Below are positions 3,966 through 60,040 of a DNA stretch of 64,000 bases, one piece after another. The DNA is taken from positions 21,762,001 to 21,826,000 of the forward strand of contig OX597834.1 of NCBI GenBank assembly GCA_951406725.2. Reading direction: 5' to 3'. This DNA comes from Octopus vulgaris. Taxonomy: Eukaryota. Both the position numbers and the translations under genes were made by a program. Each line of letters begins with the position of its first letter. Position 1 is the stretch's first letter. The notes under the pieces were generated by a model. That model saw only the letters and a program-made list of their open reading frames with translations, ran no database searches and was not told the origin of the DNA.

Positions 3966-4008
3966 TTGAATTTGACAAAGACAGACATACTGTTGAAATA
4001 TCGTTCAA
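3966..4008 (+). ncRNA. Minimal type I hammerhead-ribozyme-like motif, U3-A8 core variant
   Basis: Stem I ttgaat/gttcaa; core TTGACAA (3972-3978); extra A; stem II gacag-acata-ctgtt; GAAA; palindromic ATAT; AUC triplet; AATAAA overlaps the 3' end of stem I. Confidence 0.6.
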
Positions 4009-4169
4009 TAAAATATCTTACAATCGAATCGCGCTCTTCGTCTTGACTGTTTACCTTTGTGAAGAATTACGTCAATCCTTTTTTAAAATATATAATAATA
4101 ATAGTAATAATAATGATGATAATAATAATAATAATAATGATAATAATAATAATAATAATAATAGTAATA

Positions 4170-4375
4170 ATAAACCATGCTGTCTAGAATTCAGTGTTGT
4201 TCTAATGCAGGATGACTACATTCCTAAAATTCTTTTGTATGGCCAGCAAGACTCATCCATAGCCCTAAGGGTAAGCTGAAAGAATCACCAAATTCTCTAC
4301 AGCTTAGTTGAACATCTTGAGAAAGTGCTTGCCTAGGTTGATCTGACTGGCATGAAATGTGTCATAATGCACCTA
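4170..4375 (+). mobile_element. Degenerate RTE-clade LINE ORF C-terminal fragment
   Basis: Translation contains MQDDYIPKILLYGQ, resembling the RTE motif MxDxRIPKxLLYGEL; a frameshifted downstream SDWHEMCHNA resembles DRSxWRxxxxxG. Confidence 0.55.
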
Positions 4376-5574
4376 ACACAGGTGATACCAGTTAAGACCC
4401 CACCCCCACGAACACTGGACTGATATTTCACTTTAGCAATCCCCCGCCAAAAAAAACAAAAGACTGAAAGGTAAAGTTGACTGGACGAAAATGCTTAAAA
4501 GCATTTTTCTTGGATTGTAACGTTCTGAGTTATTGGTATTAAGTCATTGTATGATATACAGCAGCAGTAGTAGTAGTAGTGGTAGTAGTAGTAGTAGTAG
4601 TAGTAGTAGTAGTAGTAGTAGCGGTGGTGGTGGTAGCAGCAGCAGTAGTAGTTGTAGTAGTAGTAGTAGTAGTAGTAATAGCAGCAGCAGTAGTAGTTGT
4701 AGTAGTGCTATTCTGTATTGTCGTTACCCCCACCCACCTACCCCTAGCTCCGTTCTCATATCAAATGCTTTCTCATATTTTTTAAGTTTTTTGGTTTTTT
4801 TACCAAAAAAGATCTTTCAAGAATTTTAGTCAGATTGGGGGAAAAAAATTTTAATTATAACAAAACAAAGAAAAACACTACAGTTGAATTGATTGATCAA
4901 AGTATCGAACATATTTTAGAAGACGAGAACAAGATTGAGCAACCAATCACCTTCAGCTGTCATCATCATCATCATCATCCTCATCATCATCATACCATCA
5001 TCATCATCATCATGCCAGCATCATCACCATCATCATCAATGACTTCATCATCATCATCACGCTCATCCTCCTCATCATCAATGTCATCATTATTATCACT
5101 ATTAACATCTTCATTGCCATCATCATCATCATCATCATCATCATGTTCATTATCATAATCACCATCATTATCATCATCACCACCAATCCCATCATCACCA
5201 TCATTATCATCATCACCACCACTACCACCATTATCATCATCACTCACCCCCAGGGGACCCCGTCAAAATTCTGAATAAAAGTAGTCTAAATTCTTTGATT
5301 CTTCAACTCGTCTTAGTAATTTCACTGTAGCCATCCATCCCATCATGGAGCCCTACCTTCCAGGGTTTTCCAATGCAGTTTTATTTGCTTCAACACCTGT
5401 CAGTTTGATGGAGGGGGTGAACTGATGTACAGCAAAAACATTTGATCACAGTCAACAAATCATTTGCACAGGTTAGTCAGAAAAGAAATTGCTGAAACCG
5501 CTTTCCTTGCAAGACAACAGACTGCCATCCATATGCATAGACATAAAGAATATATATATATATATATATATATA

Positions 5575-5768
5575 TATTTGTGTCTCCCCACCATCGCTTG
5601 ACAACCGATGTTGGTGTGTTTACATCCCCATAACTTAGCAGTTCAGCAAAAGAGACCAATAGAATAAGTACAAGGTTTACAAAGAATAAGTCCCTGGGTT
5701 GATTTGTTCAACTAAAGGCGGTGCTCCAGCATGGCTGCAGTCAAATGACTGTTACAAGTAAAAGAAGA
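5575..5768 (+). mobile_element. SINE family A, 3' half
   Basis: Matches 26200-26400 (gcttgacaaccgatgttggtgtgtttacatcccc...gtgctccagcatggctgcagtcaaatgact). Confidence 0.85.
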
Positions 5769-5885
5769 TATATATATATATATATATATAACTAATGTAG
5801 GATAAAATATTTTTTCGAAAAATAAAAAATTTTATCAATGGCCAGCATATCAAAAAATACCTTTAAAGGTTAAATTTATAAATAA

Positions 5886-6052
5886 CTTATAAAATAAGGG
5901 CAAAAGAAAAATTCTCATGCCAAATATGCCGAAAAGACAAAATTGTCAATAACCATTATAAGAGACGCATTAATTATAACGGCTATTGACAATTTTGTCT
6001 TTTTATCGGCATATTTGGCATTAGAATTTTTCTTTTGCCCTTATTTTATAAG
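5886..6052. repeat. Long inverted repeat (~76 bp arms, ~12 nt loop) in an (AT)n-flanked element
   Basis: cttataaaataagggcaaaagaaaaattct...ccattataa (5886-5961) is the near reverse complement of 5974-6052. Related element at 48225-48505. Confidence 0.9.
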
Positions 6053-56698: not shown

Positions 56699-57831
56699 TA
56701 GAATCAGTTTTGTGCCAATAACTGTAACTTAACCATTCCACAAATACCATAATTAGCAGACAGGAATAAATAACAGGGTTCAGTTTGATCACCTAAATTT
56801 CTTCGAAATGCAGTGCTCAAGTATGGCCACAGTCCAATGGTTGTGACCCATAATAGAGAATGCATGAACCGTTTTGGCATTGGCAAGTATACTTTATTGA
56901 GTAAGAAATCTTGTCGAATTTCTGCAGTGGACAGGAAACAACGGAAGAGAATTTTTAGAAAGTCTTTGGAGTTTGTGTTCTGATCCAAAAGTAGAATTTC
57001 CTCCCAAATTTACTTTACCATAACAAGTTTGATCTTTTCTCATTTTTCAATCTAAATTGCAGATGAAAAACATCGAAGATATGACTTGATTTTTCACGTG
57101 CTCTGTACAATTAGATCTTTTCTTTTTTTTATTTTGGAGTTCTTTTTTGTTGCTTTTTCTTTTTTGTTTTTGCCTTTTTGTGTAAACAGATATGAAATAA
57201 TACATTCTGGTATTTAATTTCTTTAAGAAGCTTTTGTGCCAAGGAACATTCACAGAAAAAAGGAAAAAAAAAAAAAAAAAAAAGCAAAAGAAACTGTTAA
57301 GAATATCTTTTGAACTCTATGATAAAGAGTTTGCTTCTCAACCACATGGTTCCAGGTTCAGTCCCACTGTGTGGTACTTTGGGCAAGTGCCTTCTACCTA
57401 GCCTTAGGCTGACAAAATCCTGTGAGTGGATTTGATAGGCAGAAACTGAAAGAAACCTGTTATAATATATACACAGGGGGGTGAGGTCTTTGTGTCTGTG
57501 TTTGTCCCCACCACTGCTTGACAACTGGTGTTGGTTAGCTTACATCCCTGTGACTTAGTGGTTCAGCAAAAGAGACCGATAAAATAAGTACCAGGCTTTA
57601 TGTCAAAAAATACTGGGGTCGATTCATTCAGCTAAAATTTCTTCAAGGCAATGCTCCAGCATGGCCACAGTCTAATCACTGAAACAAAGAAAAGATAAAA
57701 ACTAAAAGATTAACCTTCCCAATGCTAAACCCACCGGTGCCATTTTGTTATTAAATTTTGGCATTTAAATGAAATTCTCCATCAGAATCTCATTTAAAAT
57801 ATAATTGTTAATACAAAAGTAATTTTCCAAA

Positions 57832-58066
57832 TGGCATAGTGGTTAAGAGCGCAGGCTACTAACCCCAAGATTCCGAATTAAATTCCAGGCAGTGACCTTA
57901 ATAATAATAATAATAATAATAATAATAATAATAATAATAATAATAATAGCATCAAAAAATACCTTAGGAATGAGAACCCAGGTTCGAAATTTCCCCGAGA
58001 CACCTGATGATGGCTGGAGGGTATATCTGCTGAAACACTGTACTAACAACAAACAAGATGAGGACA
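57832..58066 (+). mobile_element. tRNA-headed SINE-like element with a 3' hammerhead-like motif
   Basis: A-box TGGCATAGTGG at 57832-57842; decayed B-box gaattaaattcc; (AAT)n; then gacac-CTGATGA (58004-58010)-t-ggctg..ctgct-GAAAC; tail aacaacaaacaagatgaggac. Confidence 0.7.
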
Positions 58067-59170
58067 TAGGGTGTATGTACCCGCAATTTGTCATACGGGT
58101 ACCCACAAAACTGCCTGATATGATGAAGGGGTACACCAGCACAGCTGTACATGTCAAAATGTACACCTAAATGAAGATAAATGTCTGTGACCTCCTGACC
58201 TTGCAGAAGGTGAAATTCTCTCTGTACAACAATGAATATTAGGATTTTTTTCTTTTTCTTTCAAAGTATTCTTCAACAAAGTTTATAAAAATATTTGTGA
58301 AGAATGCATTAAGATCTGCTTTTACTGGCAGCAACTTTGATTGGCATATGACTTGGGTTTTCTGCCTGTCAGTACCAGTTCCATCTTTGTCAGACTTTGA
58401 CAACGCTACATGTATGTCAATGATAATATATTAGAAGTGTCTGAAAAGTTTGATATATGTATATATATATATATATATATATATATATATGTATATGTAT
58501 GTCTATATATATATATATATATATATATGTATGTATGTATGTATATGTATATGTATGTATGTATATATATATATATATATATATGTATATGTGTGTATAT
58601 ATGAATGTACATATATATATATATATATATATATACACAAACATATATATATCTACGCATAGATATACATATATATGCATATGTGTGTATATATATATAT
58701 ACACACACACACACACATATACATATTTATCTACACATATAGATATACATATACATACATATATGTGTATATATATAAATATATATATATAGATATATAT
58801 ATATATATAGTTAGATTTACACACATATACATAGAGAGAGAGAGAGAGAGAGAGAGAGACAAACATACACATGTATTTGACTCAAGGAGGGAAAAATAAA
58901 TCAATAAAGGCAAAAAAAAAATTACTGTTTTAAGGAAAGTAACCAAAGAGAAAAGTGGAAAGAAATTCCTCATGTTGGAGACATAAATATTAATGGTTCG
59001 ATAAATATGATTAACCAGTATTTTTTTCTTTTACTCTGTGTGAGTGTGTGTGTGTGTGTGTGTATGTTTTGCAATTTCTTTCATTTTCTTCTTCATTTTC
59101 CATTTTGACTCAAAGTGACGGTGGAGTCAAATGGGTCAGCTTTTGCATTTTATTTGATTTTAATATTTTC

Positions 59171-59703
59171 ATCATCATCATCATCAGCATCATCATCATC
59201 AGCATCATCATCATCATCATCATTCAACATCTGCTTTCCATGCTGGCTTGGGCTGGACGGTTTGACGGGAGCTGACCAGCTGAAGGGCTGTTCAGGCTCC
59301 ATGTCTGTTTCGGCATGGTTCCTATGGTTGGCCACCCTTCCTAATAATGCCAACCACTTTACAGAGTATACTGGGTGCCTTTATGCAGCACTGGCACAGG
59401 TGCTCTTTACGTGGCACCAGCAACCTACAAGGTCACAAGATTAGGGATGCTCAGCTGGAGAGGGTTGCAGGGGACATGCCCATATACAAGGGCAGCCATG
59501 CTTCTACTTAGCTTCATGCATCTTTTCAAGCACAGCAAACCACCAGGACCCTCGATCCCCTGCTGCCCCTTCTGTGAGTCCCAATGTCTGTAGATCCTTT
59601 CTCACCACTTCGTCCCACATCTTCCTGGATCGACCCCTTCCACATGTTCCCTCTATAATTAGAGATGGCACCTCTTGATGCAACTGTCTTCGTTCATATC
59701 CAT
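59171..59703 (-). mobile_element. 5'-truncated RTE LINE with ORF C-terminus and (GAT)n-tailed 3'UTR
   Basis: Manual translation gives LIIEGTCGRGRSRKMWDEVVRKDLQTLGLTEGAAGDRGSWWFAVLEKMHEAK*, an RTE GRGRPRKTW-type motif; the 3'UTR is homologous to 52545-52711. Confidence 0.85.
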
Positions 59704-59734
59704 TTTTTCATAATATAAATACTATTTATATTAG

Positions 59735-60040
59735 CCAGCCTCATCTTGATTGTTGCTTTCACTATGTTTTGGCTGTTCTATACTCCAGCTGTCTTCAGGT
59801 GTTTTATGTTGAACTCAGATGCTGCATCAGAATTTCACCCCTAACCCATTATTAGATCCACAGGGGCAGAATGACAGGGGTGGGGGCAGTGTTCTCATTC
59901 AGCTCATGGCATTTCCTGACACTTTTTTTTTTTTTTTGCTACAGTTGAAATATGTGAATAAATAATTGTTAATTACCTTAGTGCTTTGCCTGGGAATGAA
60001 CTCAGAACCTTTAGGTGACTGCACTGCATTAACCAAAGTC
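59735..60040 (-). mobile_element. Older relative of the tRNA-head plus hammerhead element
   Basis: Minus strand: tggttaatgca...gagttcattcccaggca head; aacac-CTGAAGA (59798-59792)-c-agctg-gagtatagaa-cagcc-AAAAC...caacaatcaagatgaggc tail. Confidence 0.6.

Follow-up and report, generated by a model that had tools for sequence, protein, structure and literature searches.

Hammerhead motifs with family-specific cores in a genomic window of Octopus vulgaris and their link to Penelope-like elements

The eleven hammerhead motifs dispersed over the analysed stretch of Octopus vulgaris DNA (64,000 nucleotides, hereafter "the window") are worn copies from about eight repeat families which occur genome-wide. 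Every family has a fixed core of its own (C3-G8, U3-A8, G3-C8, or C3-G8 with A6U), and the variant cores are set per family and do not represent copy-level decay. Judging by their sequence, these are minimal hammerheads of type I located in stubs of pseudo-LTRs (pLTRs), and in the source elements they were probably slow self-cutters assisted by dimer formation or by protein.

An earlier note on this DNA had proposed about 11 minimal motifs of type I. All their cores were located, at or no more than a few bases off the places proposed, six on the + strand (3972, 12174, 20531, 36296, 39282, and 58004) and five on the - strand (position 3 at 24054, 27753, 43602, 53346, and 59798). The corresponding features are listed below.

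3846..4085, + strand: 3' stub of a Penelope-like element with an intact U3-A8 hammerhead within (3966-4008, core 3972-3978, C17 at 4002); (TAA)n follows
12025..12227, + strand: fold-back stub pair, the forward arm with an atypical U3-A8 motif (12169-12210, extra U before G12, palindrome ACUAGU)
20465..20665, + strand: stub of the A6U family with an intact motif (20526-20563, core CUGUCGA 20531-20537); 81% identity to the pLTR found in the full tandem units of locus L407
23870..24078, - strand: stub of the G3-C8 family, about 210 nt, with a predicted start site, an intact hammerhead (24061-24012, core GUGAACA 24054-24048, U17 at 24019) and the first ORF codons; 95% identity to the upstream pLTR in locus L364
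27570..27776, - strand: decayed stub of the G3-C8 family (core 27753-27747, G3A, G12A), its 5' start being an extra G before AGATG
36234..36420, + strand: decayed stub from a different A6U subfamily (core 36296-36302, G12A)
39269..39420, + strand: C3-G8 motif with long stem II (39279-39361), G12A in the window copy; stem I of the family is just 2 bp
43480..43618, - strand: C3-G8 motif (43606-43516) whose stem II is long; decay has affected stem III and position 17, and the family has the palindrome ACAGCUGU
53250..53377, - strand: C3-G8 motif (53352-53291), stem I decayed in the window copy and 6 bp family-wide
57945..58066, + strand: decayed copy of the canonical C3-G8 family (motif 57999-58044)
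59739..59805, - strand: much-decayed copy related to the 58004 family (core 59798-59792, G12A)

The motif is intact only at 3972, 20531, and 24054, which pass our main structure descriptor (positions 3, 6, 7, and 8 left free; G12 and others required), while the other eight of the 11 copies fail it. G12 is lost at 27753, 36296, 39282, and 59798, and the stems or cleavage triplets are broken at 43602, 53346, and 58004. The least canonical motif is 12174: in the window its stem I sits at the fold-back junction, and the extra U before G12 is family-wide. The copy at about 27750 had been correctly suspected to be a decayed member of the G3-C8 family.

The excess over a shuffled background which the earlier note made a test of its proposal is present. 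Matches with a Watson-Crick 3-8 pair number 3 in the window against 0.09 +/- 0.29 expected (none of 100 local dinucleotide shuffles reaches 3), and matches with non-paired 3-8 number 2 against 0.59. Another descriptor run gave 5 matches against 0.125, although two of these five are TG-repeat artefacts. Over 190 kb of adjacent DNA, the paired class counts 4 against 0.43 (30 shuffles, maximum 3) and the non-paired class 4 against 1.57. An Rfam scan of the window (E up to 10) returned no hammerhead model among the matches listed (150 of 575), where just microRNA-like matches on microsatellites occur.

The type I layout (stem I, core, stem II, GAA, A15.1-U16.1, and H17) is present in three window copies and in typical copies of the 3972, 20531, 24054, and 58004 families; predicted folds yield stems I and II. 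At the family level, positions 3 and 8 form a Watson-Crick pair. A6 and A9 are not invariant, with U6 in the 20531 family and C9 in a sister family outside the window, and are kept in the other families. Stem III is palindromic in the families (AAUAUU, ACGU, AUAU, ACUAGU, ACAUAUGU, and the palindrome of the 43602 family given above), and a folding model formed strand-swapped dimers (gain 1.9-3.6 kcal/mol) and did not form the stem III pairs. Assignment to non-LTR retrozymes, i.e., short non-coding head-to-tail monomers with a canonical hammerhead, was rejected, since the copies are stubs left by coding elements and lie dispersed or inverted. One tandem candidate, locus L031, proved to be two unrelated stubs; separately, loci L223-L225 hold one 64-nt partial tandem without GAA.

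Family-wide data clearly indicate that the variant cores are not individual accidents. For every motif, the typical family copy fits the hammerhead better than the window copy, and reversed-pattern controls gave 0 or 1 match. G3-C8 occurs in 93 of the 100 copies listed for its family (5,565 matches) and C3-G8 in none of them. The A6U (20531) family, with 20,539 matches, has U6 in 96/100, C3 in 99/100, and G8 in 95/100 copies listed, and its position 7 is unconstrained (U41/A27/C20/G12 in these 100 copies). U3-A8 is found in 23/23 copies of its family, and the 58004 family has C3-G8 in 92/100. A survey of 1.89 Mb (3, 6, 7, and 8 free), comprising mostly loci picked by other queries and an unselected sample of 254 kb, revealed a paired 3-8 position in 10 of 11 recurring clusters (5 U-A, 4 C-G, and 1 G-C), and in six of the seven which were not seeded from the window. 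The families examined retain G12, A13, A14, A15.1-U16.1, non-G at 17, and U4/G5, although the descriptor required these.

The proposed origin from Penelope-like elements stands for three families (3972, 20531/36296, and 24054/27753), which represent pLTR ends of EN+ Penelope-like elements: an ORF with reverse transcriptase (RT) plus a GIY-YIG domain at the C-terminus adjoins the motif, and Pfam GIY-YIG and RVT_1 matches in element ORFs exceed the cut-off. Searching from the protein side, we found the G3-C8 motif downstream at 29/30 loci and the A6U motif at 27/30; for the 3972 family, same-strand GIY-YIG remains lie upstream at 15/30 loci. In locus L364 the pLTR runs continuously into the ORF, the first ATG of the G3-C8 element being 92 nt downstream of position 3, a point of difference from the PAc element discussed below. 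Locus L407 of the A6U family contains 4.47-kb tandem units, and complete units show the motif in two places, downstream of the GIY-YIG domain and once more shortly before the next ORF. All ORFs read have the CX2-5CxxC linker motif, and the elements possess tandem and inverted pLTRs, a tail, and microsatellite targets. Among the other families, 12174 is linked by a single locus of 15, where remains of an endonuclease lie about 0.9 kb upstream, and 58004 by locus L263, which has RT and endonuclease remains upstream. The 39282, 43602, and 53346 families showed no parent ORF at 15 loci each or in a few longer stretches, and the window itself yielded no Penelope ORF. These remaining families are likely Penelope-like also. 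As to a possible spliceosomal intron in the 5' UTR, two families have acceptor-like sequence before the motif, and no common upstream exon was found in stubs. Contigs from 4 runs, compared with each of two stretches, list no splice joint, and none of the records containing these sequences is entered as RNA, data which speak neither for nor against splicing or expression. A metagenome scan for relatives gave one weak locus among 109 candidates, which was left aside.

Covariation of positions 3 and 8, which the earlier note had read from unrelated motifs, is found between homologous ones. A sister of the G3-C8 element (54% protein identity over 742 aa) carries C3-G8 in its homologous motif, and two-sided changes separate the two elements at 3-8, stem I, and stem II. 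Thus, the aligned sequences indicate that the 3-8 pair truly covaries, the basis being one pair of lineages. The sister family has A9C in 94/100 copies and at 9/10 protein-side loci, and its stem III, AGAACU, is an imperfect palindrome.

The stub ends suggest which RNA was copied. Of 7,195 matches to the G3-C8 family, no more than about 1% begin at the predicted cut; therefore, uncut RNA was copied. The stubs break off shortly past the motif on its downstream side, frequently in (TA)n or (TAA)n, and head-to-head pairs of them are common; in the G3-C8 family there are two 3' ends, near +125 (41/108) and at +175 to +189 (53/108). Most G3-C8 stubs share a single start, 30 nt behind a TATA-like box, and frequently carry an extra G there. 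A spliced exon was rejected as the reading of this start because no bases upstream of the extra G are shared (20/20 copies), and a start site with a cap-derived G is preferred, although about 5 of the 20 extra G's possibly derive from the inverted arm. Most G3-C8 stubs thus likely reach back to a capped transcription start. This 5' end is not general: in a young A6U subfamily it is absent, 95/100 copies running on upstream.

We suppose that reverse transcription begins within the RNA at a point downstream of the motif and mostly halts early, which would scatter hammerhead-bearing stubs that afterwards decay. Selection in the source elements would retain 3-8 pairing together with the stems, GAA, and cleavage triplet and may tolerate core changes lowering the rate, because the RNA must mostly remain uncut to be copied. 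The claim of selection for self-cleavage is upheld in part: 3-8 pairing is kept, but young, spreading families carry A6U and, in the sister, A9C, which are not compensatory, and copies derive from uncut RNA.

These same facts may be read differently. The hammerhead fold could be kept for a job other than cutting, such as protein binding, pairing of two RNAs, or placing the start of reverse transcription, the 3-8 pair being retained because the fold needs it. The fixation of A6U and A9C in young families with long open frames fits this possibility, as do the copying of uncut RNA and the in vitro insertion unaffected by catalytic mutants reported in PMC11167929. However, the specifically catalytic positions listed above are also kept (with the reservation on the descriptor), and related motifs show weak cutting as dimers according to PMC4209133, so we regard a purely structural job as rather unlikely. 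Another reading, already unlikely, treats the variants as neutral changes in dead ribozymes spread by a successful master copy. A single master is enough to establish any base in copies by the thousand, whose counts are not independent; yet G3-C8 requires two transversions restoring a pair, the stems show covariation from one sister lineage to the other, across the A6U subfamilies position 7 varies among all four bases with 3, 6, and 8 unchanged, and 3-8 is paired in nearly all recurring clusters. This leaves the neutral explanation very little probability.

Chance matches in AT-rich, hairpin-rich DNA are a still poorer explanation, which we practically dismiss. The failure of most window copies in the descriptor and the background matches to a loose one (8 against 2.4) speak for chance, but all the motifs come from repeat families in which the typical copy is the better fit, reversed patterns give almost nothing, and the motif position is fixed relative to Penelope ORFs. 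Chance is refuted for the 3972, 20531/36296, 24054/27753, and 58004/59798 families and is slightly possible for 12174.

Returning to slow, assisted self-cutting as the preferred reading, one may tentatively go further, although we would not give this extension even chances: G3-C8 may be the form in which the hammerhead of a young, intact retroelement works, the first natural case, beside the A6U and A9C families; the hammerheads may be selected as "damped", protein-triggered ribozymes; and the G3-C8 stubs may record reverse transcription of uncut RNA up to the cap, their extra G being untemplated. The role of hammerheads in Penelope-like elements is termed unclear in the literature (PMC8557442 in its preprint version, PMC7761336). 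In the Octopus genome, young elements with long ORFs supply a series of natural mutants (C3-G8, U3-A8, G3-C8, A6U, and A9C, two of the elements being homologous sisters), and the rates of cleavage in the presence and absence of the element's protein would tell whether selection keeps the chemistry or the fold alone. As foreseen, standard descriptors overlook the variants, missing families with more than 20,000, 5,000, and 3,800 matches; therefore, published counts may be too low, and claims that some clades are without the motif may be affected likewise.

The suggestion of an "under-described" system was overstated, since minimal hammerheads in Penelope-like elements are not new. Cervera and De la Pena (2014, PMC4209133) described them in the pLTRs of metazoan elements, and common to both are dispersed single motifs, many families per genome, the place in the pLTR, the extra nucleotide after A9, a short palindromic stem III, opposite-strand pairs, and a U3-A8 family, with about 1,300 matches in Schistosoma. 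Family-wide G3-C8, A6U, and A9C were not found in the accessible text of that paper, nor an Octopus entry in the searchable portion of its supplement. The hammerhead literature searched, an incomplete set with key works outside it, yielded no natural G3-C8, A6U, or A9C. The Octopus elements resemble EN+ elements of the Neptune/Nematis type (Craig et al. 2021, PMC8557442) in the C-terminal GIY-YIG, the CX2-5CxxC linker, (TA)n targets, inverted 5'-truncated copies, and the tail. Among natural core variants, Perreault et al. (2011, PMC3088659) reported U3-A8 covariation and a position-6 variant, A6C, which cuts slowly; G3-C8, A6U, or A9C are not named in the part of the paper available, and its examples are rare, whereas ours are fixed in thousands of copies. 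A parallel to the copying proposed here is PAc Poseidon of Anolis (PMC11167929), where the hammerhead likewise lies at the pLTR/ORF border, cuts only with the element's own protein, and is copied mainly from uncut RNA, with two 3' ends ("tail") inside the ORF start. In PAc, C3-G8 is natural and G3-C8 is a laboratory double mutant (C3G/G8C) giving partial rescue, while in the Octopus family G3-C8 is the natural state.

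The observation of about 11 dispersed hammerhead-like motifs in the earlier note was real and correctly seen: all eleven cores were located in the window, six of them on + and the other five on the - strand, and every motif is a copy of a repeat. The note had proposed a comparison with a shuffled background, which the paired motifs exceed. With a descriptor in which positions 3, 6, 7 and 8 were free and GAA, H17, a palindromic stem III and both other stems (I and II) were obligatory, three matches paired at 3-8 were found vs 0.09 +/- 0.29 in 100 local dinucleotide shuffles of the window, and two unpaired matches vs 0.59. 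The paired matches were:

Window 3972: paired 3-8 match, U3-A8 family
Window 20531: paired 3-8 match, A6U family
Window 24054: paired 3-8 match, G3-C8 family

Decay or an atypical structure marks the remaining eight motifs: G12 is missing from four, stems or triplets are broken in three, and the motif at 12174 carries an additional U preceding G12. In two families (window 12195 and 43532), an extra nucleotide lies between stem II and G12, on the 3' side, in contrast to the usual extra base, which follows A9. An Rfam search of the window gave no hammerhead among the 150 matches listed of 575.

When the 2.8-Gb genome was searched with patterns open at the core, the 24054 family had 5,565 matches, the 20531/36296 family 20,539 and the 58004/59798 family 9,225 (reversed-pattern controls, 0). 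DNA searches for 3972, 12174, 39282, 43602 and 53346 gave 41-47 matches each, with 40 candidates scored out of 210-1,213; the window motifs thus represent eight families. Core bases of the pattern-searched families were counted by hand over the first 100 matches listed. The G3-C8 family has G-C in 93/100 and C-G in none, the others being single mismatches; the A6U family has U at position 6 in 96 (A 3, C 1), C3 in 99 and G8 in 95; the 58004 family has C3-G8 in 92 and A6 in all 100. In the 3972 family, U3-A8 is present in 23/23 descriptor matches. The variant cores are family states, and the outcome that the earlier note had named as refuting, a reversion of family consensuses to CUGANGA, did not occur. 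Position 7 of the A6U family is mixed (U 41, A 27, C 20 and G 12 of the first 100 matches listed); the hammerhead core tolerates any base at position 7 alone. A long pyrimidine tract (window 20490-20530) lies ahead of the A6U core, and in A6U subfamilies that have A7 the sequence reads like a splice acceptor, which could explain U6; contigs showed no splice joint.

The paired covariation at 3-8 is borne out by a homologous motif. The nearest relative of the G3-C8 protein in the genome (54% identity over 742 aa) has in its pseudo-LTR (pLTR) a motif that can be aligned to the G3-C8 motif. The alignment has 27 invariant columns, and both partners have changed at 3-8 (C-G for G-C) and within stems I and II, this being one comparison of two lineages. 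It was found at loci outside the window:

L429-L437, ~770 nt downstream of the ORF, also L038, L199, L368: sister motif, young Penelope-like family, core CUGAUGC (A9C), imperfect stem III AGAACU

In this family, C occupies position 9 in 94 of the first 100 matches listed (3,808 in all) and at 9/10 loci found from the protein side. The free-position descriptor, run over 1.89 Mb of DNA mostly gathered through other queries, gave 11 recurring clusters, 10 of them paired at 3-8 (5 U-A, 4 C-G, 1 G-C), including 6/7 of those not seeded from the window; among singletons, 9/21 were paired. Hammerhead-like motifs carrying C3-G8 or U3-A8, at least ten more in number, occur at L426, L048, L179, L236, L054, L379, L185, L190, L238, L283 and L300, several with a palindromic stem III of 6-10 nt.

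A Penelope-like origin, also proposed earlier, holds for three families in which reverse transcriptase (RT) and GIY-YIG endonuclease sequences adjoin the motif. In the 3972 family, same-strand GIY-YIG remains lie upstream at 15/30 loci, at some together with RT. Long G3-C8 copies have a GIY-YIG frame ~1 kb upstream of the motif; from the protein side, GUGAACA was found 927-1,240 nt downstream at 29/30 loci, and open frames of 839 and ~1,000 aa are present among copies. In L364, a G3-C8 locus, the upstream pLTR is continuous with the ORF, the first ATG lying 92 nt downstream of position 3, with one stop and one frameshift further along. In the A6U family, CUGUUGA was found at 27/30 protein-side loci (3/30 without match), and L407 contains tandem units of 4.47 kb. 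The three parent proteins are distant (22-36% identity, partial alignments). The ORF link rests on a single locus each for the 12174 and 58004 families, and no locus linking motif to parent ORF was found for 39282, 43602 and 53346 at 15 loci each and in a few longer stretches. Another young family, seen at L372 and L376 (ORF 2842-5185), has a U3-A8 motif that lacks the extra nucleotide, and many of its 781-aa RT-endonuclease frames are intact. L376 also has a separate 378-aa upstream frame, which overlaps the start of the ORF and gives a two-ORF layout.

The short dispersed copies, or stubs, indicate which RNA was copied. When the 25 nt immediately downstream of the predicted G3-C8 cut were used as query, A stood nine bases upstream in 6,889/7,195 matches; of the first 100 such matches, 99 retained stem III with at most small changes. 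For the remaining 306, foreign sequence reached the predicted cut in ~10 of the first 100, similar to neighbouring positions. About 1% or fewer of G3-C8 copies start at the cut; the templates were therefore uncut. Most stubs start 15-25 nt upstream of the core, and only 3/44 copies not chosen on upstream sequence (47 minus 3 false matches) continue further. In long copies, this start coincides with the A of a YAG that lies 30 nt downstream of a TATA-like run. The preceding base, C or T in the element, is G in 60/100 stubs, counted with a pattern excluding T one base further upstream; no shared sequence was seen upstream of that G in G3-C8 stubs. We infer that the 5' end is a transcription start, with G copied from the cap. 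Under a rival reading it is a splice acceptor site, which the stub-start sequence resembles as well. The G3-C8-type pattern is absent from the young A6U subfamily. The 3' ends of G3-C8 stubs fall near +125 (41/108) and at +175 to +189 (53/108), within the first ORF codons, matching the description of the Anolis Penelope-like element (PMC11167929). The two ends of the G3-C8 stub are complementary (GAGAUG with CAUCUC; window 23870-24078, L030:1474-1700) and pair with each other in the predicted fold (z -1.0, not significant).

Reverse transcription that is primed internally, downstream of the motif, and ends early would scatter such stubs, and source elements probably retain a fold capable of slow cutting, either in dimeric form or together with the protein of the element. 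A laboratory C3G/G8C swap partly restored activity (PMC11167929; PMC8495972), a natural A6C hammerhead was slow (PMC3088659) and related motifs cleaved weakly as dimers (PMC4209133). The selection for self-cleavage suggested earlier is supported in part: A6U and A9C in young families argue against selection for fast cleavage. The same substitutions leave room for a less likely alternative, in which the fold is kept for a non-cutting role.

Other repeats also lie in the window: a short-repeat head directly after a (TA)n run (window 6140-6185), which we take to be tRNA-like; a 20-nt tandem array (18816-19322; 25 copies, 93% matches); a tandem 238-nt unit (44185-44620; 1.8 copies); and a ~400-nt dispersed repeat (25995-26408, 51300-51671, 55898-56302, 1022-1437). 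Outside the window, the frame at L031:835-1392 (-) presumably resembles the N-terminus of a mariner-type transposase.

The earlier suggestion that the system may be under-described does not hold: Penelope hammerheads, U3-A8 included, are already published (PMC4209133; PMC3088659). Natural G3-C8, A6U or A9C was not found in the searchable literature. The octopus elements are of a known kind, with family-wide core variants that are apparently unreported.
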